From the IMG/VR virus record IMGVR_UViG_2541047794_000003: a DNA stretch of 32,443 nucleotides. One strand, written 5' to 3'. The DNA comes from a virus. Lineage: Duplodnaviria > Heunggongvirae > Uroviricota > Caudoviricetes. Below the pieces are notes generated by a model, which was not told where the DNA came from, ran no database searches, and saw only the letters and a list, made by a program, of their open reading frames with translations. The position numbers were made by a program, and so were the translations under genes. Below, piece after piece: positions 1-19,613 of the stretch. How positions within the stretch are numbered: the stretch's first letter is position 1; each line of letters begins with the position of its first letter.

Positions 1-1131
1 TCAAATGACCAGTTTTTTCCATTCCTTACCGCGTGCGTCGTTGTAAATATCGGTCATTTTTTGATTCGAATGGCCTAGCAAAATTTTGGTATCAACCCCC
101 TGCTCTCTGAACAATCGCTCTGATAAAGATCTCTGCTCATGGAAAGAGGGTGGGGTGCCATTAGCACGCCAGTTGTAATCCACAGAATCCCGGGCTTTTT
201 TAAATGCAACGGTTAATGTTGCTGGCTTAACCATCCCGCCGCGCTTAGCTGTCCCTTTCGCGTGATGGTGGTGCAATAGCCACGGACTAAGAACGCAATC
301 GCGGCAGGATGACACCACATCATCCAGGGTGAGATTTAATTTATCGCAACGCAGAGCCAGAGGGATGGCAATCCGGGTTCCTGTTTTTTGCTGTTCGACA
401 TGAAGATAACCATCCCGGATATCCGAAAATTGCATTTTGCAAATATCTGAAAGGCGCTGGCCTGTCATCAGTGCCAGCAGCATACCGCGCTGTAAAAAGT
501 AACCATCCTTTTCCGCTGCGTTATAAATCATCATCCACTCATCAAAAGTCAGTCGCTGTCTTGATATCCGCACCTGCGGTTTTTTTGCCGATTCTGCAGG
601 GTTAAAGCCTGGCGGGACATCGCCCGTTTGCTGAGCTTCCCGGAAAACATCGATCAGTACTTTCCTGAAAATTTGTCCCATTCTGTTATGTCCTCTGGCC
701 TTGTACTCTTCCAGTACTGATACCACATCTTTTACGGTTATGGCATCTAACGGTCTGGTGCCAAAACGTTCATCAAATACCCTGAGAGGGGCCGCTTTCT
801 GTTTCAGCGTGTTGAGTTTGATCTCGCCGTTTTCATATCTTTCCTGTTGAATTTTTCTGTAATTATTCAGAAAAATGGTAACGGTTGATGAACCGCCGGT
901 ATCACTAATAATTTTCTCCTGCAGACTGAGCATTTGTTCCATTTGCTGCCGGGCAAGACGGCTGTTCGCTTCTGCTGCAATAGTTTCTGCCAGTTTCTGG
1001 TCAATACTGCCGAGACCGTGATTTTTGCCTGTTATGGGATGCCTGTAACGCCAGTAAACTTTGTTATTTCTTTTGTCAAAATACGGAGATAATCCCGGAA
1101 CATCGGTTTTATATTTTCGCGGGCGCGCCAT
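1..1131 (-). CDS. int: Phage integrase, tyrosine recombinase (lambda Int family)
   Basis: 376-aa ORF; C-terminal ...LLGHSNQKMTDIYNDARGKEW typical of lambda-type integrases; ATG at 1129-1131, stop at 1-3; overlapped at its 5' end by an excisionase-like ORF. Confidence 0.9.
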   Translation of the reverse strand: MARPRKYKTDVPGLSPYFDKRNNKVYWRYRHPITGKNHGLGSIDQKLAETIAAEANSRLARQQMEQMLSLQEKIISDTGGSSTVTIFLNNYRKIQQERYENGEIKLNTLKQKAAPLRVFDERFGTRPLDAITVKDVVSVLEEYKARGHNRMGQIFRKVLIDVFREAQQTGDVPPGFNPAESAKKPQVRISRQRLTFDEWMMIYNAAEKDGYFLQRGMLLALMTGQRLSDICKMQFSDIRDGYLHVEQQKTGTRIAIPLALRCDKLNLTLDDVVSSCRDCVLSPWLLHHHHAKGTAKRGGMVKPATLTVAFKKARDSVDYNWRANGTPPSFHEQRSLSERLFREQGVDTKILLGHSNQKMTDIYNDARGKEWKKLVI

Positions 1132-1357
1132 CTTCCAGTATCCTCTTCAAAGCAGGGTGATCTGTGGCGATCACCTCCGGCTTGTTTACCATTCCGACAA
1201 AGCGAGCTTGCGGATCCACTCGCCAGCGTCTTCCAACTTTTTTGGGGAGAGGAAATATCATTCCGGCTTTAGCGTATTTACTTAACGTACTCGGAGTAGG
1301 GACCGGTTCACTGAATTCCTCTTTTGCCCACTCAGTGAGCAGAATAAGTCTTGCCAT
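1109..1357 (-). CDS. xis: Excisionase-like small DNA-binding protein
   Basis: 82-aa ORF immediately upstream of and overlapping int start (classic xis-int arrangement); basic small protein. Confidence 0.65.
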   Translation of the reverse strand: MARLILLTEWAKEEFSEPVPTPSTLSKYAKAGMIFPLPKKVGRRWRVDPQARFVGMVNKPEVIATDHPALKRILEDGAPAKI

Positions 1358-1421
1358 GAGCGTCGTTCGCTAATCATGGTCGCCGCCACTATAGCTGGTG
1401 GGCAACGACCGGGGTTGAACA

Positions 1422-3893
1422 TTAAAAATCAGCCTGATTCGGGATCAGTTTTTGCCAGATAACTGAAACGTATTTTGCCTGGTAACGGGCGTCATCAAGT
1501 GCATTATGGCGCTCACCTTCGAATGGAATAGCCGTTCTGGCATCGAAGTCTATGGCTTTCCCCAGCTCAACGATTGTGCGTACATCGCGATCGTTGTAGT
1601 AACGCCATGGGCAGGGGATCCCCTGCCGTTCGTATGAACGGCGCAAAATCGTGTTGTCGAAGTTGGCTCCATTTCCCCAGACCTGAACAAAAAATTCGCC
1701 GGAGTTTTCGTCGATAAATTCCCGCAATTGCAGCAGTGCATCATCTAACGGGATTTCATCGGTCAGAATGGCAGATTGCGCCTCCCGTGATTGCTTAAGC
1801 CACCATTTAATGGTGCCACGATCAATGACTCCGCCAGCAGTATCCATATCGATGGTCTTACTAAATTCCGGCCCCATATCTCCGGTTTGCGGATCGAAAA
1901 ATATTGCACCTATTGAGATAAGCGGGGCATCGGGATTTTTTCCCATGGTTTCAAGGTTGATCATCATGTGGTGCCACATTCTGCTGGTGGATGTGATAAC
2001 GTGATGACCGTTCATCGCAATTAAGGGATCTGCCGTCTCGCCAGTTTCACTATCGCTGGCGTGATCCTGAGCGCTACCAGCATTCTCCTTGTGTGGATGT
2101 TCAGCGCCTTCCATTTCCTTCGGATCATTTTCCTGAACTTCAACCTGATTCTCTTCATCGAATGTTTCCTGGTATGTTGCGTCGCCCATTACCGCGCCAC
2201 AATCAGGGCAGTTGCCACCACCGCTTTGACCGCAGGCGGTGCAGACTTTTTCCGGTTCCTGTTGCGCTACTGGCTCAGGTTGTTTCGTTTCTGGCTCGTT
2301 TTGTAACGCATTTGGGCTGTTTTGTTCCGCTTTCTGGCCGTTCTGTTCCGTTTCTTGTTGGTTCTGATTCACTGAATCGCGGGTTTCAATCCCCTTCACC
2401 CATTTCGGATCATTCGGGTCGCTAATCCCTGCAACAAATTCACCACGTGATACAGCAAGCAACTTATTGGCGTCAGGCTGGCTGATATTGGCTGCCTGCA
2501 TAATTTTGTTTACTTCGTCAGCGGTAACTTTTACCGGCTCTGGTTGTGCGATCGTGTCAGATGCACCAGTATTTTGTTGTGAACCTGAGTATGTACTGTT
2601 TTTGCGGGCGAAATATTCTTCTTTCGTGATTTCAGTAGCCCCAGCAGACAGCGCCTTATCCAGACCAGAAAGTTTGTTTGCGCGACCGTATTTTTCGCCA
2701 TCCTTGTCGGTGAAGAGGAAGTAGAACGGCCCCTCACGTTCTACAGATGGTTCGACTTCCACTTTGCATTCGGTTTTTTCGTTGTCCGGAATTGCCGTTT
2801 CCACTGCATCAGTTTCTGGTACTGGCGACGAGAGAGTATCAGTTGCGCTCTGATTTGTTCCTTCATCTTCAAACACGCCCTTTGTAGTCAGGTATTCAGT
2901 AATGTATTTGTTCAGTGCCACAGGGTCTTTGTGAATGTCGATCGGACGTTCACGGACAAGGCCAAAAATAGTCTGGCGGTCGTAGCGAAGGGCATCAGGC
3001 TGTTTGCGCATTGATGCCGAGATACGCTTCCAGTCTTCGCGGTCGTTGTCGATAACTTCATTTTTTGCCCAGCGATGGATGCTGCCGTCAATGTTTCCGG
3101 CATCCACATCACCAGGCCAGAGAGCGTAGGCCAGTTCGTCATCCAGTGTTTTCCATGTCTGCTTGTATTCGCGATGAATGGCAGCAATGACCGGGTTGAT
3201 TTTTCCTGTTGAATTTTCAGTGTGCTGTTGATTGGCTCTGGCGCGGGCGAGATCAACAACAGACGTGTATTTTCCGGCTTCCTTGCGTTCACCTTCGCGA
3301 CGTTTTTTCCAGATGCGCATCTCTGCCTGAATTTCGGGCCATTTGGCACCAGGCTTACATTTATGCTTAACCCACCCGATGGCATGCAGCTTAAGCTCCG
3401 GATACATGGCGTTAACTTCTGGCATTTTCATCAACGCTTCAACGATATGTCCGTCGAATGTTGCCATGTCTTCCTGCAACAATTCCTGTGCGCTAATAAC
3501 CATATCAACGGTGATGTTTTCACATGTGTCGAACTTAACCATGACAGCGTTCTGTACTTCAGGGGCCAGCTTGTCAAAAGTGACGTTCATCGGATCGGAT
3601 TCAGTCTCAACCGGGACAAAGGAAGCAGACTCCTCATCCCAGCGGTTTTCCTGCATATATTCAGCATCCCAGGAATCGAGGGCAGGGCGGGGTATACCGG
3701 GTTTATCCTCGCAGACAAGAAATTTATAAGCGCAGTCCTGAGCAGCCGGATAATGCTCCAGGAATTGCCAGTGAAATTTTGCGCGGGCGCGACGTTCATC
3801 ACCGGCTTCAATGGCAGTGGCTACAGCGACGGCACCTTCTTCCTTTATTGCCTGTTCGTCCGGAATGGCGGCGCAAATAAAGACTTTACTCAT
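1422..3893 (-). CDS. Large prophage exonuclease (exodeoxyribonuclease VIII-like annotation class); C-terminal DEDDh/DnaQ-like 3'-5' exonuclease domain, central acidic linker with CxxC...CxxC zinc ribbon
   Basis: 823-aa ORF; C-terminal ~200 aa ending ...HNALDDARYQAKYV (DnaQ-like motif III); CTACGQSGGGNCPDCG zinc-ribbon motif; GAGGT SD upstream of ATG at 3891-3893. Confidence 0.7.
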   Translation of the reverse strand: MSKVFICAAIPDEQAIKEEGAVAVATAIEAGDERRARAKFHWQFLEHYPAAQDCAYKFLVCEDKPGIPRPALDSWDAEYMQENRWDEESASFVPVETESDPMNVTFDKLAPEVQNAVMVKFDTCENITVDMVISAQELLQEDMATFDGHIVEALMKMPEVNAMYPELKLHAIGWVKHKCKPGAKWPEIQAEMRIWKKRREGERKEAGKYTSVVDLARARANQQHTENSTGKINPVIAAIHREYKQTWKTLDDELAYALWPGDVDAGNIDGSIHRWAKNEVIDNDREDWKRISASMRKQPDALRYDRQTIFGLVRERPIDIHKDPVALNKYITEYLTTKGVFEDEGTNQSATDTLSSPVPETDAVETAIPDNEKTECKVEVEPSVEREGPFYFLFTDKDGEKYGRANKLSGLDKALSAGATEITKEEYFARKNSTYSGSQQNTGASDTIAQPEPVKVTADEVNKIMQAANISQPDANKLLAVSRGEFVAGISDPNDPKWVKGIETRDSVNQNQQETEQNGQKAEQNSPNALQNEPETKQPEPVAQQEPEKVCTACGQSGGGNCPDCGAVMGDATYQETFDEENQVEVQENDPKEMEGAEHPHKENAGSAQDHASDSETGETADPLIAMNGHHVITSTSRMWHHMMINLETMGKNPDAPLISIGAIFFDPQTGDMGPEFSKTIDMDTAGGVIDRGTIKWWLKQSREAQSAILTDEIPLDDALLQLREFIDENSGEFFVQVWGNGANFDNTILRRSYERQGIPCPWRYYNDRDVRTIVELGKAIDFDARTAIPFEGERHNALDDARYQAKYVSVIWQKLIPNQADF

Positions 3894-4930: not shown

Positions 4931-5097
4931 GATGGCAGCCTCCGCGATGAATTTGATTAACTCACCACCGAGGTTTTCCACGACCATAAGGGTGGTGAGA
5001 CGTACAGGGGTGGAAATACCGGTCATCACGGAACCCGGCCAGCCTTGCGGCTGCCCTGCACGCCCCACCATAATGCGAATGTGGCTGTGCTTAACGC

Positions 5098-5122
5098 ATA
5101 AAAAAACCGCCTGAGCGCGGTT
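5098..5122 (-). terminator. Rho-independent terminator (minus strand) in early-left operon
   Basis: Perfect 6-bp stem AACCGC/GCGGTT with 6-nt loop followed (on minus strand) by a U-run; lies upstream of the Rha gene. Confidence 0.5.
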
Positions 5123-5799
5123 ATGCGCCGTGAATGATTTCGGGTTTCCACGCCCGGCACCCGTTTTATGAGGTGCAGGTGCACTATAATTCCACCCGTT
5201 CTGGTTTTCAATAGCTACATTCAACATTTTCTCTCACCTTTTCAGCGGAGTGAACTTTGTGATGCAGTGCCTGGTGCCTCCAGGTGACGTTAACCAGTTA
5301 ACAATTAACGCCGGATACAGAGAATCCACCCATAACACTGTTTTTGGTTTTAACTGTTCCGCGTGCGCTGAGCCGCATTCACCGCATCACAAAATTCACT
5401 TTAAAAAGGGCGGCAGAGCAGTCACGGAGTAAAACTGATACCGCCAAACGTCACCAGAAAATTGATAACAGAGGGCGTTGCAGCGGGGTTGTCACTTAAG
5501 CGTATGGTCAACCTGACAACCCGGTGTCCTCAACGGGGGAAGGAATAACCCCGCCATACTTACCGCCGCGCCATTTCGCGGATTGCCACAACCGGAAGCG
5601 CACGGTCGACGAAAATTTAACGACAGGCTATCTATGAACCAGCTACCTCGCCGTGCGCTTTCGCGTTATGGTCTGACTTTTCAGGGAAATATCCTTTCAG
5701 TAAACTGTCAGTGCCGGATTCTTATCCGTGTCCGGCGCACGACCACACGCTGTCACGAGAGGTCTCCATTCTCAACCAGTAACCTCAATGGAGGATAAA

Positions 5800-5994
5800 A
5801 TGTCAGAGCAGGAGTTAAAACTTGGTGCATGTTATTGTGTTCTCAAGGAGCTGGTACACATGCTTCCATCTACTCAGTATCAACAGTTAGTTGGCAATTT
5901 AAATCAGCGAATCGAAGCTATGTTAAAATCTGATGGTTTTAATAACGTAGAAACGCTGATGCTAAAAAGATATCTTGATGGATTAATCAGATAA
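5800..5994 (+). CDS. Hypothetical 64-aa protein on the opposite strand to the early-left genes
   Basis: ATG at 5800 with GGAGG SD 5 nt upstream; converges on and overlaps 3' end of minus-strand gene 5983..6333. Confidence 0.45.
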   Translation: MSEQELKLGACYCVLKELVHMLPSTQYQQLVGNLNQRIEAMLKSDGFNNVETLMLKRYLDGLIR

Positions 5995-11771: not shown

Positions 11772-11879
11772 TTTTATGGATCACCTTTCTGATTGATTTC
11801 ATATTGGCGAGGTGACGTGAGTTAAGTAGAATGGCTGCGGGTGCTTGAGGCTATCTGTCTCAGGCATGAACACTGAAAG

Positions 11880-11960
11880 GCAGATAGAGAAAAGCCCCAG
11901 TTAACATTTCGCGTCCTGCAAGACGCTTAACATTAATCTGAGGCCCAATCTATGTCTCAC
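11880..11960 (-). ncRNA. Candidate Sok-like antisense RNA of the hok locus (approximate bounds)
   Basis: Minus-strand region complementary to hok leader/mok start; contains GGGGCU hairpin element analogous to Sok 3' end; candidate promoter TTGCCT-N17-TAACCT on minus strand. Confidence 0.35.
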
Positions 11961-12008
11961 AAATGTAGGTTAGCCTCTTACGTGCCGAAAGGCAAGGGGA
12001 AGCAGGCT

Positions 12009-12164
12009 ATGAAGCAGCAAAAGGCGATGTTAATCGCCCTGATCGTCATCTGTTTAACCGTCATAGTGACGGCACTGGTAACGAGGAAAGACCTCTGCGA
12101 GGTACGACTCCGAACCGGCCAGACGGAGGTCGCTGTCTTCACAGCTTACGAACCTGAGGAGTAA
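12009..12164 (+). CDS. hok: Hok/Gef-family type I toxin (small membrane peptide)
   Basis: 51-aa ORF MKQQKAMLIALIVICLTVIVTALVTRKDLCEVRLRTGQTEVAVFTAYEPEE matching Hok family pattern; leader has tac/ucb-like elements; in-frame upstream ATG at 11952 (mok-like). Confidence 0.85.
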   Translation: MKQQKAMLIALIVICLTVIVTALVTRKDLCEVRLRTGQTEVAVFTAYEPEE

Positions 12165-13661: not shown

Positions 13662-14042
13662 ATGACTGAACGCATAGAATTTGTTTTGCCTTACCCGCCA
13701 ACGGTGAACACTTACTGGCGACGCCGTGGCAGCACATATTTTGTATCAAAAGCCGGGGAGCGTTATCGCCGGGCAGTGGCGCTTATTGTTCGCCAGCAGC
13801 GGCTGAAATTAAGCCTGTCCGGAAGGTTGGCAATAAAAATTATTGCAGAACCACCGGATAAGCGCCGCCGTGACCCGGACAATATTCTGAAAGCGCCGCT
13901 GGATGCGCTGACGCATGCGGGGTTGCTAATGGACGATGAGCAGTTTGATGAAATCAATATCGTTCGTGGTCAGCCAGTATCTGGTGGACGTCTGGGGGTG
14001 AAGATTTACCCCATAATGCTTGAAGGGCAGGTCAAAAAATGA
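13662..14042 (+). CDS. rusA: Holliday junction resolvase RusA
   Basis: 126 aa; LPYPPTVNTYWRRRG ... PDKRRRDPDNILKAPLDALTHAGLLMDDEQ ... GGRL matches RusA catalytic pattern. Confidence 0.85.
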   Translation: MTERIEFVLPYPPTVNTYWRRRGSTYFVSKAGERYRRAVALIVRQQRLKLSLSGRLAIKIIAEPPDKRRRDPDNILKAPLDALTHAGLLMDDEQFDEINIVRGQPVSGGRLGVKIYPIMLEGQVKK

Positions 14043-14860
14043 AACTGGAAGATTTACCGAAATACTACTCCCCAAAATCCCCCGGCCTGACCGATGCGTC
14101 CGCCTCGACATCAAAAGATGCGCTGAGTATCACTGATGTGATGGCCGCGCAGGGCATGACACAAAATCGGGCTGAGATGGGTTTTTCTGCGTTCCTTGGG
14201 AAAATGGGCATTAGTATGAATGACAGAGAGCGGGCAACAGAATTGCTGACAGAATATGCACTCAGTCGGTGTGATCGCGTGGCGGCGTTAAGAAAACTCC
14301 CGGCAGAAATAAAACCGGTAGTGATGCGCATTATGGCTTCGTACGCTTTTGAGGATTATGCCCGCAGCGCAGCGAGTAAAAAGCAGTGCCCTTGTTGCTA
14401 TGGGGAAAAATTTATTGAAAGCGTAGTTTTTACAAACAAGGTCCAGTATCCGGATGGTAAGCCGCCGGTATGGGCAAAGTGTACGAAAGGTGTGTATCCG
14501 TCTTACTGGGAAGAATGGAAAAAAGTCAGGGAGGTGGTAAAAGTTGCCTGTCCGGAGTGTGGCGGAAAGGGTGAGGTTTCCACCGCCTGTAAGGATTGCC
14601 GTGGGCGTGGTGTCGCCATTCATCGTGAAGAGTCGGTAAAACGTGGTATGCCTGTTATCAGAGACTGCCAGCGTTGTGGTGGTCGTGGCTGTGAAAGACT
14701 ACCATCAACGGAGGCATTTAATGCCATACGCAAAGTGACGAGTGCTATCACGCTTGATACGTGGAAAAAATCAGTGAAACGCTTTTACGATACGTTGGTG
14801 GTTCGGTTTGACATTGAAGAGGCATGGGCGGAGCGGCAGTTAAAGAGGGTAACGCGATAG
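14039..14860 (+). CDS. Q: Late-gene antiterminator Q (long Q-type with multiple CxxC zinc motifs)
   Basis: 273 aa with four CxxC pairs; ATGA overlap with rusA; immediately followed by a PR'-like promoter whose -10/initial transcribed region resembles lambda PR'. Confidence 0.65.
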   Translation: MKLEDLPKYYSPKSPGLTDASASTSKDALSITDVMAAQGMTQNRAEMGFSAFLGKMGISMNDRERATELLTEYALSRCDRVAALRKLPAEIKPVVMRIMASYAFEDYARSAASKKQCPCCYGEKFIESVVFTNKVQYPDGKPPVWAKCTKGVYPSYWEEWKKVREVVKVACPECGGKGEVSTACKDCRGRGVAIHREESVKRGMPVIRDCQRCGGRGCERLPSTEAFNAIRKVTSAITLDTWKKSVKRFYDTLVVRFDIEEAWAERQLKRVTR

Positions 14861-14865
14861 TGTTG

Positions 14866-14905
14866 TTGATTTTTCCCGAATCTGTGGTAAATTTGCTCTA
14901 ACGAT
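14866..14905 (+). promoter_or_regulatory. Late promoter PR' with qut-like region
   Basis: -35 TTGATT (14866-14871), 16-nt spacer, -10 TAAATT (14888-14893) followed by TGCTCTAACGATGGGCG, resembling my recollection of lambda PR' GGGTAAATTTGACTCAACGATGGG. Confidence 0.55.
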
Positions 14906-14940
14906 GGGCGTTTTATGCCTGACGTTAGAAGATTTTTTAC

Positions 14941-14966
14941 ACCCCGCCGCCTGGCGGGTTTTTTAT
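14941..14966 (+). terminator. tR'-like intrinsic terminator
   Basis: CCCGCC gcct GGCGGG hairpin followed by TTTTTT about 50 nt downstream of PR' -10. Confidence 0.55.
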
Positions 14967-15086
14967 GACTGAAATCGCGTCAGTACAGTAAACGCGCTGG
15001 TGGCGGTGAATACCTGTCTTTCAGCTTGCTGGCTTTTTCGACAAGAGTTATTGGTGTGTCACGTTAACCGGAAAAGGGAAAAAGAC

Positions 15087-15284
15087 ATGCTAAAACAGCA
15101 GGATATGACAGAAACCGCCAGAGTAGTGTTTAATGAATTAAGAGTTACCGAACCGGCGACAGTCGGGGAGATAGCGCAGAATACTTACCTTTCACGCGAA
15201 CGCTGCCAGTTAATACTGACCCAGCTGGTTATGGCGGGTCTGGCAGACTATCAGTTCGGTTGTTACAGACGCCTTCCGCAGTGA
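15087..15284 (+). CDS. Small hypothetical protein (possible winged-helix DNA-binding)
   Basis: 65 aa from ATG 15087 with AAGGGA SD; intrinsic terminator hairpin overlaps its 3' end. Confidence 0.5.
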   Translation: MLKQQDMTETARVVFNELRVTEPATVGEIAQNTYLSRERCQLILTQLVMAGLADYQFGCYRRLPQ

Positions 15285-15296
15285 AGGCTTTTTTAT
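15271..15296 (+). terminator. Intrinsic terminator
   Basis: GCCTTC cgcagt GAAGGC followed by TTTTTTATTT. Confidence 0.5.
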
Positions 15297-15434
15297 TTGT
15301 GGTAAATGGGCGGCTGGTGGGTGTTAGGGGCACCCACCAGCCATCTGCTCATGCGTTGGGTTCACAAGCAAACCTCAGGCCCACTGCTTTGCGCAAAAGC
15401 AGAATGAGCCTATCAGAGACAGGCTTAATGATCC

Positions 15435-16484
15435 ATGCTTAATACTGTAAAAATATCCAGTTGTGAGTTAATCAACGCCGACTGCCTGGAATTTATCCGG
15501 TCGTTACCCGAAAATTCTGTTGACCTGATAGTCACGGACCCGCCGTACTTTAAAGTGAAGCCTGAGGGCTGGGATAACCAGTGGAAGGGCGACGATGATT
15601 ACCTGAAGTGGCTGGACCAGTGTCTGGCGCAGTTCTGGCGGGTGCTGAAACCTGCCGGAAGTCTTTACCTGTTCTGTGGTCATCGCCTGGCATCTGATAT
15701 CGAAATCATGATGCGTGAACGCTTCAGTGTGCTGAACCATATTATCTGGGCGAAGCCGTCCGGACGCTGGAACGGATGCAACAAGGAAAGCCTGCGGGCG
15801 TATTTCCCCGCCACAGAGCGCATTCTGTTCGCGGAACATTATCAGGGGCCGTATCGTCCGAAAGATGCCGGGTATGCGGTGAAGGGCAGTGCACTGAAAC
15901 AGCATGTGATGGCCCCGCTGATTTCTTACTTTCGTGATGCGCGCGCGGCCCTGGGGATAACGGCAAAACAGATTGCAGATGCCACAGGAAAGAAAAACAT
16001 GGTGTCGCACTGGTTCAGTGCCAGTCAGTGGCAGCTACCGAACGAAAGCGATTATCTGAAATTACAGTCGCTGTTTGCCCGGGTGGCAGAAGAGAAACAT
16101 CAGCGCGGTGAACTGGAAAAGCCCCACCACCAGCTGGTGGATACGTATACGTCACTGAACCGGCAGTATGTGGAGCTGCAGAGTGAATATAAGCATCTGC
16201 GGCGGTATTTTGGTGTGACGGCGCAGGTGCCGTACACGGATGTGTGGACACATAAACCGGTGCAGTTCTATCCCGGGAAACATCCGTGCGAAAAACCGGC
16301 AGAAATGCTGCAGCAGATAATCAGCGCAAGTAGCCGTCCTGGTGATCTGGTTGCGGATTTTTTCATGGGGTCGGGTTCAACGGTAAAAGCGGCGATGGCA
16401 CTGGGGCGTCGTGCGATTGGTGTTGAGCTGGAGACCGGACGTTTTGAGCAGACAGTCAGGGAAGTTCAGGATTTAATCGTTTGA
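15435..16484 (+). CDS. Orphan DNA methyltransferase, probably N6-adenine (beta-class motif order)
   Basis: 349 aa; TDPPY motif IV near N-terminus and FFMGSGST motif I near C-terminus; no adjacent restriction gene. Confidence 0.8.
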   Translation: MLNTVKISSCELINADCLEFIRSLPENSVDLIVTDPPYFKVKPEGWDNQWKGDDDYLKWLDQCLAQFWRVLKPAGSLYLFCGHRLASDIEIMMRERFSVLNHIIWAKPSGRWNGCNKESLRAYFPATERILFAEHYQGPYRPKDAGYAVKGSALKQHVMAPLISYFRDARAALGITAKQIADATGKKNMVSHWFSASQWQLPNESDYLKLQSLFARVAEEKHQRGELEKPHHQLVDTYTSLNRQYVELQSEYKHLRRYFGVTAQVPYTDVWTHKPVQFYPGKHPCEKPAEMLQQIISASSRPGDLVADFFMGSGSTVKAAMALGRRAIGVELETGRFEQTVREVQDLIV

Positions 16485-16533
16485 AACGGATGAGATTGCA
16501 GAATTAATTACGCACCATTATTATTCTGCTCCC

Positions 16534-16609
16534 GGCCCTTTAGCTCAGTGGTGAGAGCGAGCGACTCATAATCGCCAGGTCGCTGGTTCAAATCCAGCAA
16601 GGGCCACCA
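16534..16609 (+). tRNA. ileZ: tRNA-Ile (anticodon CAT, lysidine type; ileZ-like)
   Basis: 76-nt cloverleaf GGCCCTT...AAGGGCC-A-CCA; anticodon loop CTCATAA; near-identical architecture to E. coli tRNA-Ile2. Confidence 0.8.
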
Positions 16610-16616
16610 TCACATA

Positions 16617-16693
16617 CCGCCATTAGCTCATCAGGAAAGAGCGCCAGCCTTCGAAGCTGGTTGCGCGGAGTTCGGGTCCCCGAAGGCGGTCCA
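16617..16693 (+). tRNA. tRNA-Arg (anticodon TCG as read), atypical
   Basis: Cloverleaf with anticodon stem CCAGC/GCTGG and loop CTTCGAA; one mismatch in acceptor stem (A6:A67) and one in T-stem, T-loop TTCGGGT; ends CCA. Confidence 0.55.
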
Positions 16694-16706
16694 TTATCTG
16701 TATCCT

Positions 16707-16783
16707 GCGTTGTTAGCTCAGCCGGACAGAGCAATTGCCTTCTAAGCAATCGGTCACTGGTTCGAATCCAGTACAACGCGCCA
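16707..16783 (+). tRNA. argO: tRNA-Arg (anticodon TCT, reads AGA)
   Basis: Perfect acceptor stem GCGTTGT/ACAACGC, anticodon loop CTTCTAA, T-loop TTCGAAT, discriminator G, CCA. Confidence 0.8.
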
Positions 16784-16829
16784 CACTTATTTTCCCTGGC
16801 TCGCTTTTGTGGGCCTTTTTTTTAAATGT

Positions 16830-17045
16830 CTCACAATTTAGGCGGTTGACTGTTGTCTGGTTTGCGGGGAGTTTGTTAAAAGAAACTGGCATGGTGAATC
16901 CCCCTGTGCGGAGGGGCAATCAGCGAGTAGGTATATGGGATAATCGCGGATTCAGGTGCTGGTACTGAATTCACCGGGAGGCACCCGGCACCATGCAATG
17001 GCACATAGCGCCACTCTCCAGCCCCTCTCCGGAGGGGCTTTTCTG
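16830..17045 (+). repeat. Module A of tandem structured non-coding element (conserved arms GCATGGTG.../...CACCATGC, internal hairpins, terminator)
   Basis: CTCACAATT + TTGACT motif, conserved arm gcatggtgaatccccctgtgcggaggggc (16889-), arm ctgaattcaccgggaggcacccggcaccatgc (-16996), terminator CCCCTC tccg GAGGGG + T-run (17022-17045). Confidence 0.5.
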
Positions 17046-17297
17046 TGCCGGATACATCACAGTTTCTGGAACCTTAGGTACTACAGTATCAGTCAGGGTG
17101 CTATATTTTCAGATGTGATGAAAGCCTGTCAGCAGGCAGGGCGTATCGGAAATGACCCAGTAGAGAAAACGTTGACTCAGATACCGGTGCTGAGTTACCG
17201 GGAAACCGGCATCACATGACCGCTATCCTTCCAGGCCCATCCGCTCCGGTGGGCCTTTTTACTGCAGAAAACAGGTTCCCCGTTAAATGCTATGTTG

Positions 17298-17532
17298 CTC
17301 ACAATTCAGTAAGTTGACAGTTGCCTGTCAGACTGGGCATTTGTTAAAAAAATTTCGCATGGTGAATCCCCCTGAGCGGAGGGGCGACTGGTGACGGTAT
17401 AATCTCTGATTATCAAAACGAGAATGACGCGGGTTTAGTGGCACCGGGCTGAACTCACCGGGAGGCACCCGGCACCATGTGCATGATGATACAGATACGC
17501 GGCTTTAGCCCCTCTCCGGAGGGGTTTTCTTG
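17298..17532 (+). repeat. Module B, second copy of the same structured element with divergent core
   Basis: Same conserved arms (17357-17479) and same terminator (17507-17532); central ~60 nt unrelated to module A; preceded by terminator GGCCCA...TGGGCC+TTTTT (17234-17261). Confidence 0.5.
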
Positions 17533-17759
17533 TGGGCAAAAAAAGCCCGCGCTGGGAGACGCGGGCGGCAAGGAATAAACAATAAAACGTGAAGTAATAT
17601 TTCAGCTGGCGAATAATACCCCATAGTAATCACTCTGCGCAACTGCGCGGTCTTTTTCGAATTGCGGGCTGTCGTCTCTCTTCTGCCATTGTCCTGTAAC
17701 TTCCGGACTTCAGCCCGCTCCTTATTTTACTCACAATATTATCCCGGCCGGGAGGATTC

Positions 17760-19613
17760 ATGGCATTTAAACACTATGACGTGGTCAGGGCGGTATCGCC
17801 GTCAGACCTTGCGAAACGACTGACACAAAAACTGAAGGAGGGCTGGCAGCCGTTTGGTAGTCCGGTGGCCATAACCCCTTATACCCTGATGCAGGCGATT
17901 GCAGCAGAAGGTGATGTGGTGGTCAGTGGTGCAACTGAGCCGGATTGGTACTACGTCATCGTACTGGCCGGGCAGTCCAATGCCATGGCTTACGGTGAAG
18001 GGCTTCCGCTGCCGGATTCATACGATGCGCCCCATCCGCGCATTAAGCAACTGGCCCGTCGTAACACAGTGACTCCCGGTGGTGAAGTATGCGTATTTAA
18101 CGACATCATTCCTGCTGACCATTGTCTGCATGATGTTCAAGATATGAGTACGATTAACCATCCCCGGGCTGACCTGAGCAAAGGGCAGTACGGCTGTGTC
18201 GGACAGGGCTTACATATTGCCAAAAAACTGCTTCCGTATATCCCTAATAACGCGGGGATCCTGCTGGTACCATGCTGTCGTGGTGGTTCGGCATTCACCC
18301 AGGGCACGGAGGGGACATTCAGCGAGTCCACGGGGGCCAGTCAGGATTCGGCTCGCTGGGGAGTGGGTAAGCCGTTATATCAGGATCTGCTTTTCCGCAC
18401 GAAGGCAGCATTGCAGAAAAACCCGAAAAACGTTTTGCTGGCGATATGCTGGATGCAGGGGGAATTCGATATGACGAATGCCAGTTACGCCCAGCAGCCA
18501 GCAGCATTTCTTGCAATGGTACAGCAGTTCCGTGCTGACCTTGCCGGGCTGGCGGCGCAGTGTCACGGTGGAAGTCCGGCATCAGTCCCCTGGATTTGTG
18601 GCGACACGACATACGCGTGGAAACAAGAACACGGTACGCAATATGAAGTGGTATATGGTGCATATAAAGGTAAAGAATCCCAGCAGATTTATTTTGTTCC
18701 CTTTATGACCGATGGTAGCGGAGTTAATACACCGACAAACAACCCGTCAGAAGATCCTGATATTGCCGGGTCTGGTTATTACGGTTCGGCATCCCGAACG
18801 AACAAAAACTGGGTATCATCAAATCGCCCGACGCATTTCAGCTCATGGGCGCGTCGTGGCATTATTCCCGATCGTATGGCAACTGCTATTCTGAACGTAG
18901 CCGGTCGCACCTTAGCCTTCATTAGTGGTAAGGCACCGGAAATCAAACCCTCGCCCGGCGGCGACACGCCATCGGGGCCGTCTGAAGATGCATCCGTACG
19001 CACAATCTCCCTGTTGCCGACAGCCGGAGATGCTGCTGCGCAGGGCTGGAGCATTAAGAATGGCGGAATTCAGTTGTCAGAGGGTGTATTTAAGATCACC
19101 AAGCAGAGCAATAAAACCTGGTACCTGATGCATCCGGTGGATGACGCAATTACCCTGCTGACACAGGGCGGCAGACTGACCTGTAAGTTCCGCCTCTCAG
19201 GCGCACTGACCAACAATCAGTTCGGGCTGGGGATTTATCTGTATACGGACGCTCCCGTTCCTGATGATGTGGCGATGACGGGTACTGGTAATCCGTTCCT
19301 GATGTCTTACTTCACTCAGACCACTGACGGCAGAGTGAATCTGATGCATCACAGGAAAGCCGGAAACACGAAGCTGGGGGAGTTTGGCGATTACGGTAAC
19401 GACTGGCAGACGCTGGAGCTGGTGTTCACCGCCGGCAGTGCCACGGTTACTCCGAAACTGAATGGAGTGGCTGGCCCGGCATTCCAGGTCATAAAAGACA
19501 GTCTGACACTGGGGCTGAATGCGCTGACGCTGACGGATGTTACAAAAAATGCAGCGTATGGCGTTGAGATAGAAAGTCTGGTGCTGGAGATAAATGCACC
19601 GGCATCATCATAA
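17760..19613 (+). CDS. Prophage sialate O-acetylesterase (NanS-p type): N-terminal DUF1737 plus SGNH/SASA esterase domain
   Basis: 617 aa; GGGAGG SD; GQSNAMAYGEG esterase motif; sits downstream of the tRNA cluster as in Stx-phage late regions. Confidence 0.75.
   Translation: MAFKHYDVVRAVSPSDLAKRLTQKLKEGWQPFGSPVAITPYTLMQAIAAEGDVVVSGATEPDWYYVIVLAGQSNAMAYGEGLPLPDSYDAPHPRIKQLARRNTVTPGGEVCVFNDIIPADHCLHDVQDMSTINHPRADLSKGQYGCVGQGLHIAKKLLPYIPNNAGILLVPCCRGGSAFTQGTEGTFSESTGASQDSARWGVGKPLYQDLLFRTKAALQKNPKNVLLAICWMQGEFDMTNASYAQQPAAFLAMVQQFRADLAGLAAQCHGGSPASVPWICGDTTYAWKQEHGTQYEVVYGAYKGKESQQIYFVPFMTDGSGVNTPTNNPSEDPDIAGSGYYGSASRTNKNWVSSNRPTHFSSWARRGIIPDRMATAILNVAGRTLAFISGKAPEIKPSPGGDTPSGPSEDASVRTISLLPTAGDAAAQGWSIKNGGIQLSEGVFKITKQSNKTWYLMHPVDDAITLLTQGGRLTCKFRLSGALTNNQFGLGIYLYTDAPVPDDVAMTGTGNPFLMSYFTQTTDGRVNLMHHRKAGNTKLGEFGDYGNDWQTLELVFTAGSATVTPKLNGVAGPAFQVIKDSLTLGLNALTLTDVTKNAAYGVEIESLVLEINAPASS

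Follow-up and report, generated by a model that had tools for sequence, protein, structure and literature searches.

A probably decaying argN within the conserved ileZ-argN-argO tRNA operon of an stx-less lambdoid Escherichia coli prophage

Sets of tRNA genes carried by phages such as T4 and T5 match codons that are used more by the phage than by its host. The ileZ-argN-argO trio of lambdoid phages resembles these sets in that respect but is a small three-gene operon of a temperate phage, with its own constitutive-type promoter. Its presence in Stx-type lambdoid phages as an accessory is textbook knowledge, its annotation is routine, and the original description of the trio in phage 933W is reportedly that of Plunkett et al. 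1999. The names ileZ, argN, and argO, as well as the promoter designation pT, are annotated in the 933W record (NC_000924), and the same trio occurs in 289 phage records, most of them Stx2 phages. On the host side, ileZ shares its CAU anticodon with the chromosomal E. coli genes ileX and ileY, which encode lysidine-modified tRNA-Ile2, and argO shares its UCU anticodon, which decodes AGA and AGG, with argU (dnaY). The literature searched contained nothing specific on decay of argN. In one 2026 paper, "tRNA-pseudo" variants are noted beside stx2i, and the other papers found mention the trio only in passing.

Here, we analyzed a 32,443-nucleotide stretch of DNA (IMG/VR record IMGVR_UViG_2541047794_000003), referred to in its entirety as the window, which is an stx-less lambdoid E. 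coli prophage. Its tRNA locus is the ileZ-argN-argO operon already known from lambdoid phages of the 933W type, and the presence of the trio here adds nothing new; argN-specific decay is a minor comparative observation. The initial annotation had described the middle gene as either functional but unusual or decaying. Our comparative data favor decay, short of proof, and we place the probability that argN of this prophage is functionally impaired or decaying at about 70%.

ARAGORN identified exactly three tRNA genes in the whole window, all on the + strand, and Rfam RF00005 returned the same coordinates (Table 1), in agreement with the three tRNA genes initially placed within 16534-16783. All three score above the RF00005 gathering score of 29 bits, and none is a chance match, because their whole-window E-values are 3e-14 (ileZ), 3e-06 (argN), and 1.5e-13 (argO). 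Short ORFs of 54 to 77 aa that run across the tRNAs were rejected as spurious, since they overlap three strongly scoring tRNA genes. The trio occupies the Q-to-lysis region, between the methylase and esterase genes, with a P21-type holin gene and then a lysozyme gene lying 3' of the esterase gene (Pfam and ORF analysis).

Table 1. Features of the tRNA locus and its surroundings in the window
Feature	Position	Strand	Basis and remarks
C4 antisense RNA	4988-5075	-	Rfam match
isrK	5100-5176	-	Rfam match
DicF	5408-5459	-	Rfam match
sok antisense RNA with hokD-like ORF	11839-12014	+	Rfam match
RusA	13662-14042		Pfam and ORF analysis
Antiterminator Q, 273-aa PF03589 protein	14039-14860		Pfam and ORF analysis
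Terminator-like sites just 3' of Q	14894-14910, 14943-14958		
N6/N4 DNA methylase (N6_N4), full length	15435-16484		Pfam and ORF analysis
pT, putative sigma-70 promoter	16496-16524	+	-35 TTGCAG 16496-16501, 17-nt spacer, -10 TATTAT 16519-16524
ileZ, tRNA-Ile2-type, anticodon CAT	16534-16609	+	ARAGORN; Rfam 72.5 bits; CCA end encoded
argN, tRNA-Arg(TCG), degenerate allele	16617-16693	+	ARAGORN; Rfam 43.4 bits
argO, tRNA-Arg(TCT), reads AGA/AGG	16707-16783	+	ARAGORN; Rfam 70.1 bits; CCA end encoded
Intrinsic terminator	16798-16823	+	Terminator scan; stem-loop GGCTCGC-TTTT-GTGGGCC 16798-16815, then T8
Two tandem STnc100 sRNA copies	16860-17050, 17328-17537	+	Rfam RF02076; 136 and 161 bits
SASA/DUF1737/DUF6645 esterase, 617 aa, NanS-p-like	17760-19613		Pfam and ORF analysis

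The ileZ-argN-argO arrangement of Stx phages that the initial annotation proposed is indeed present, with the same gene order, pT hexamers, terminator, and upstream methylase gene or remnant as in 933W and with identities to the 933W genes of 76/76 (ileZ), 70/77 (argN), and 76/77 (argO). The spacers of 7 nt (ileZ-argN) and 13 nt (argN-argO) compare with 9 and 13 nt in 933W. The two operons differ in that Q of the window is of another type, the methylase gene is full length, and seven of the 77 positions of argN have changed, through A58G and two substitutions that break stems, among others. A position upstream of toxin genes, also expected initially, did not hold for this prophage: two STnc100-like elements and the esterase gene follow the trio instead, and Rfam, ORF, and Pfam analysis detected no stx genes downstream of the tRNAs or elsewhere in the window. 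stx was likewise absent from 129 of the 146 sampled clusters with enough flanking sequence, and stx is no defining feature of the trio, as most copies lack it.

The putative promoter pT, whose 3' end lies 10 nt upstream of ileZ, aligns with a 29-nt element that is labeled "pT; putative tRNA promoter" in the records of 933W and phage 06-3462, and from its sequence would be expected to drive the tRNA operon. In an alignment of 156 clusters, there is hardly any variation in the -10 hexamer or in the initial TTG of the -35 hexamer, whereas the spacer and the DNA further upstream vary, and the TTG-17 nt-TATTAT arrangement is retained even in divergent upstream types. A generic promoter scan missed pT because its -35 hexamer is just a 3/6 match. 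The terminator aligns with the one annotated after argO in 933W, from which it departs by a single C-to-T change that keeps a G:U pair, and its stem and T-run are conserved across clusters. Given the conserved pT hexamers and terminator, the three genes therefore constitute a self-contained operon, in agreement with the 933W annotation.

A 401-nt segment around the tRNA genes is 100% identical in E. coli 55989 and several other finished genomes, and similar sequence is present in 3061 of 5426 complete E. coli genomes, at up to 13 places per genome. In all, the complete E. coli genomes hold 7597 copies of the cluster. A scan of genome contigs for an ileZ 25-mer returned eight loci, from Escherichia, Shigella, likely contaminant metagenome-assembled genomes (MAGs), and one insect-symbiont MAG, the last of which has an ileZ-like CAT tRNA and lacks the cluster. 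In E. coli 55989 (L002, 15094-17035), the interval from Q to the tRNAs holds a Ser/Thr kinase, a PP2C phosphatase, and a truncated methylase. In the corresponding part of the window (15000-16484), the methylase is full length, yet the 401 nt around the tRNAs are identical; therefore, the tRNA operon adjoins a boundary of mosaic exchange.

Several RNA elements were also observed in the neighborhood of the operon. The two STnc100 copies, each ending in a GC-rich hairpin and a U-run, both lie between the tRNA terminator and the esterase gene. Stx2 phage L001 has a single STnc100 copy, located 3' of stx2B (5743-5958), so that stx2AB occupies the place of the first STnc100 copy of the window. At loci L104, L163, and L179, AgvB/AsxR-like sRNA matches adjoin the STnc100 3' end on the opposite strand. 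Further Rfam matches in the window (sok, C4, isrK, and DicF) are typical of Rac/Qin-like prophages. Terminator-like hairpins are enriched in 14800-17800, with 14 found and 3.2 expected, in keeping with a Q-dependent late leader that precedes several read-through terminators. The STnc100 elements were considered as the pR'/tR' late leader and rejected, given that the 933W annotation has pR' directly after Q and that terminator-like sites of the window also follow Q (14894-14958).

Of the three tRNA genes, ileZ is 68/76 identical to K-12 ileX, including a compensatory change of C6:G67 to T6:A67, and shares with it the anticodon loop CUCAUAA and the acceptor pairs C4:G69 and C5:G68. These pairs have a role in TilS recognition. 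It differs from ileX in being prophage-borne and in carrying A27:C43 for G27:U43. The default ARAGORN label for a CAT anticodon is Met; we assign ileZ to Ile because RefSeq/PGAP annotates identical copies as tRNA-Ile and because of the identity to ileX. With an ileX-like body, a CAU anticodon, and both acceptor pairs, ileZ presumably has C34 modified to lysidine and would thereby read AUA. The outer genes had initially been described as clean cloverleaves, which is correct for argO, in which all 21 pairs are standard, and not for ileZ, in which the cmscan alignment shows a mismatch, A27:C43, in the uppermost pair of the anticodon stem. This mismatch is fixed in every scorable ileZ copy, that is, in all but two alleles with a deletion. 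argO is 77/77 identical to its counterpart in Stx2a_1447 and has A20 and a TCT anticodon at the ArgRS identity positions. The T-loops of both outer genes contain the invariant nucleotides (TTCAAAT in ileZ and TTCGAAT in argO). Of 161 sampled copies, 143 of ileZ are identical and 139 of argO have no structural defect; because they are near-invariant across clusters, ileZ and argO are under strong purifying selection.

As first described, argN has anticodon TCG, an A:A mismatch in the acceptor stem (6:67), an A:C mismatch in the T-stem (52:62), and a T-loop of TTCGGGT, all of which the cmscan alignment reproduced; in this loop (UUCGGGU in the RNA), the invariant A58 is G. ARAGORN also assigned TCG, and the covariance score is above threshold. 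E. coli ArgRS recognizes its tRNAs through A20, C35, and G36 or U36. The corresponding positions A20 (in the D-loop ATCAGGAAA), C35, and G36 are intact in argN, as are the anticodon loop and the CCA end, and every allele of the gene has a C1:G72 pair and U73, an unusual discriminator. Relative to 933W argN, the seven changes are G17A, C20aA, C44T, G52A, A58G, T63C, and T67A, of which those other than G52A, A58G, and T67A are loop changes or convert a G:U pair to G:C. Differences number 0, 7, and 1 from 933W and 0, 7, and 0 from Stx2a_1447 for ileZ, argN, and argO, respectively, so that the comparison with Stx2a_1447 sets 7 substitutions in argN against 0 in the 153 nt of ileZ and argO (Fisher p = 4e-4). 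The argN alleles of Stx phages are clean cloverleaves with A58. The damaging states of the window allele are derived, because intact alleles as well as a paralog with a Lys anticodon carry G52, A58, and T67.

ViennaRNA folds Stx2a_1447 argN as a cloverleaf at -36 kcal/mol, compared with a minimum free energy of -27 kcal/mol for the window allele (z of -0.45 versus shuffled sequences), which keeps five acceptor pairs. In the predicted fold of the window allele, the T arm is replaced by a hairpin pairing U54-G58 with C63-A67, which A58G and T67A extend. We considered whether this hairpin is a selected structure and rejected the idea, since A58G and T67A show no covariation: 15 clusters combine G58 with T67, and 2 combine A58 with A67. 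The hairpin is treated as a by-product for the same reason.

To place this allele among its relatives, we assembled 161 ileZ-to-argO clusters from two IMG/VR scans (one anchored on ileZ and one on argO), the window, and two reference loci. The numbers of distinct alleles were 13 for ileZ, 59 for argN, and 28 for argO; defects beyond the family baseline were present in 8, 97, and 22 of the 161 copies, respectively; and diversity per site was 0.005, 0.155, and 0.009 (calculated for ileZ and argO on the unanchored parts), compared with 0.20 in the argN-argO spacer and 0.27 to 0.30 in the flanks. Of the 97 defective argN copies, 35 have gross indels or an anticodon arm that has been replaced, 51 have at least two defects, and 11 have one. 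Rfam scores descend from 54.8 to 56.0 bits for intact alleles through 52.2 bits for a one-mismatch allele to 43.4 bits for the window allele and 42.9 bits for its C32T variant, and heavily damaged and rearranged alleles gave no Rfam hit at E <= 1.

The argN backbone family is nevertheless a genuine tRNA under structural selection: standard pairs occupy 98.6% of the pair cells in 31 distinct A58 alleles plus paralogs, and four pairs (4:69, 7:66, 27:43, and 30:40) have changed on both sides, versus none in every slid control. Variable sites are depleted in stems among A58 alleles (6/42 versus 12/35) and show no such depletion among G58 alleles (12/42 versus 11/35), and additional defects were found in 14 of 17 G58 alleles versus 7 of 27 A58 alleles (p = 5e-4, a value that, like the others from these samples, overstates significance as the samples are phylogenetically non-independent). 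G58 occurs in several argN backgrounds. Because G58 is tied to extra defects and to the loss of stem depletion, A58G may inactivate the gene at an early stage, after which drift follows.

The window-type allele, defined by all three defects, accounts for 38 of the 161 clusters and 8 alleles. Its derivatives add G50A (which breaks 50:64), G10T (which breaks 10:25), and a change of CCA to TCA, and no pair-restoring changes were found among these 8 alleles and 38 clusters. Within this lineage, 6 sites are variable in argN, 2 in ileZ, and 2 in argO, a modest excess that is consistent with relaxed constraint on argN. In an independent collection of 5426 complete E. coli genomes, a dead 80-nt middle-slot allele was found at >=99% identity in 1040 (~19%) and has no PGAP annotation. 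At the same identity threshold, the intact 933W argN allele and the window allele were found in 248 and 230 genomes, respectively, and both are annotated by PGAP as tRNA-Arg, for the window allele without a pseudogene label in its identical copies. Strains with the exact window allele include E. coli 55989 and ATCC 11775, and EDL933 has the intact 933W allele. Intact argN is commoner beside stx (13/17 versus 46/129 clusters, p = 0.003, ignoring relatedness). Dead argN alleles mostly retain slot length (80 to 81 nt versus 77 nt) and the acceptor-stem halves, and 66-nt slots and argN/argO fusions also exist.

Other rearrangements of the argN sequence were observed among the sampled loci. A paralogous cluster of ileZ, "tRNA-Lys(TTT)," Thr(TGT), and Gly(TCC) is present at L003, L007, L197 (1247-1556), and L200 (7651-7960). 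Its "Lys" gene combines the acceptor, D, and T backbone of argN with a different anticodon arm and resembles an anticodon-arm swap; the commonest "Lys" allele has C33 instead of U33 and an A51:C63 mismatch, and a rarer one combines a normal CTTTTAT loop with a compensated T4:A69 pair. In three IMG/VR loci, hybrid genes join an argN 5' half to an argO 3' half within shared anticodon-loop sequence, which looks like the outcome of a recombinational deletion between the two Arg genes. In one argN allele that is intact in other respects, the anticodon is TCT instead of TCG.

A model of the operon is proposed based on these comparisons and on codon usage, which was counted by the same ORF heuristic in the window and in a 50-kb stretch of core chromosome. 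The prophage is enriched in all five cognate codons: per 1000 codons, window ORFs versus core genes have 5.8 versus 2.6 ATA, 6.5 versus 1.0 AGA, 4.6 versus 1.1 AGG, 4.9 versus 2.8 CGA, and 13.1 versus 3.0 CGG, the argO codons AGA and AGG thus being enriched 4- to 6-fold. stxA2 of 933W is extreme, with 47 ATA and 18.8 AGA per 1000. The tRNA operon may be viewed as a "moron" (an accessory gene block that brings its own promoter and terminator) lying between the Q/methylase region and the esterase and lysis genes, and its constitutive-type promoter would supply tRNAs for codons used more by the mobile element than by its host. In this scheme, ileZ and argO would provide decoders for AUA and AGA/AGG, which are rare in the host and over-used by the prophage. 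argN would add a decoder for CGA and CGG, and is a genuine tRNA in some phages, including 933W-type Stx2 phages, yet dispensable, as judged from the allelic series and from the dead slot in ~19% of genomes in which ileZ and argO persist. The host reads CGA with ICG tRNAs and CGG with argX, and a plausible reason for the dispensability of argN is that these host tRNAs already read both codons. Taken together, the data suggest that selection maintains ileZ and argO but not argN.

For the window allele, A58G would remove the invariant T54-A58 pair of the T-loop, G52A and T67A would open the T and acceptor stems, and the mutations would favor the alternative hairpin over the T arm. Most likely, the product is thus poorly folded, processed, or charged, and the allele is at an intermediate stage of drift toward the fully dead forms often found in E. 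coli prophages. Like tRNA pseudogenes, it has lost an invariant nucleotide, has unpaired stem positions and a reduced covariance score, and belongs to an allelic series that ends in unrecognizable remnants; unlike them, it remains above detection thresholds and keeps its anticodon loop and CCA end, and we infer its pseudogene status from the comparative data.

The strongest competing explanation, which we nonetheless regard as unlikely, is that argN of the window is functional and only structurally unusual, being charged by ArgRS and reading CGA and CGG with its mismatches and G58 tolerated. ARAGORN, Rfam, and PGAP all accept the gene, its anticodon loop, A20, C35/G36, and CCA end are intact, and CGG and CGA are over-used 4.4-fold and 1.8-fold in window ORFs, with CGG, in codons per 1000, the most over-used of the five codons, so that demand is not obviously absent. 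Single mismatches can be tolerable, as the fixed A27:C43 of ileZ indicates, and four clusters have G58 on an otherwise intact cloverleaf. Against this reading, argN has lost the universally conserved A58 and carries two mismatched stem pairs, and all three states are derived; its score is 12.5 bits lower than those of intact alleles, and it has a predicted fold without a T arm that is no stabler than shuffled sequence. Persistence of the allele in 230 complete genomes of diverse lineages also favors function but could reflect hitch-hiking with ileZ and argO, and it must be set against the further, uncompensated damage in its descendants and the many E. coli genomes in which the slot is dead and the outer genes persist.

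It is very improbable that a degenerate argN is kept for a non-decoding role, either as an RNase P/E punctuation element for the ileZ-argO precursor or as a decoy for, or a resistant substrate of, tRNA-Arg-targeting nucleases, for instance toxins of the colicin D type or defense systems with anticodon nucleases. The action of phage tRNAs against tRNA-cleaving defenses is an established concept, dead alleles mostly keep the slot length and acceptor-stem halves instead of being deleted, and A58G and T67A extend the alternative hairpin. Yet these changes show no covariation, the 66-nt slots and fusions indicate that the slot can disappear, its diversity equals that of spacer DNA, as the absence of constraint predicts, and the window holds no evidence of a nuclease or other partner. 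Finally, sequencing or assembly errors in a canonical argN, suggested by nothing more than the clustering of differences in one short gene, have a negligible probability, given that 230 independent complete genomes share the 97-nt slot at 100% identity, several finished genomes match the 401-nt region exactly, and 38 of 161 viral-contig clusters share all three defects.

In sum, impairment or decay of argN is the reading that we prefer, and it sets the middle gene apart from its neighbors: within one operon, ileZ and argO are near-frozen across hundreds of prophages, and argN is found at every stage from intact to unrecognizable, with a dead middle-slot allele as the commonest state in complete E. 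coli genomes. There is an outside chance that the damaged argN is instead a retained, structured non-decoding RNA or a functional UCG decoder that tolerates G58; if so, it would be a natural bacterial tRNA working without the T54-A58 pair. The acceptance of this gene as tRNA-Arg, at 43 bits, is a caution that automated annotation can credit prophages with more functional tRNAs than they have. Collectively, the argN alleles constitute a natural series for probing how much damage a bacterial tRNA tolerates.
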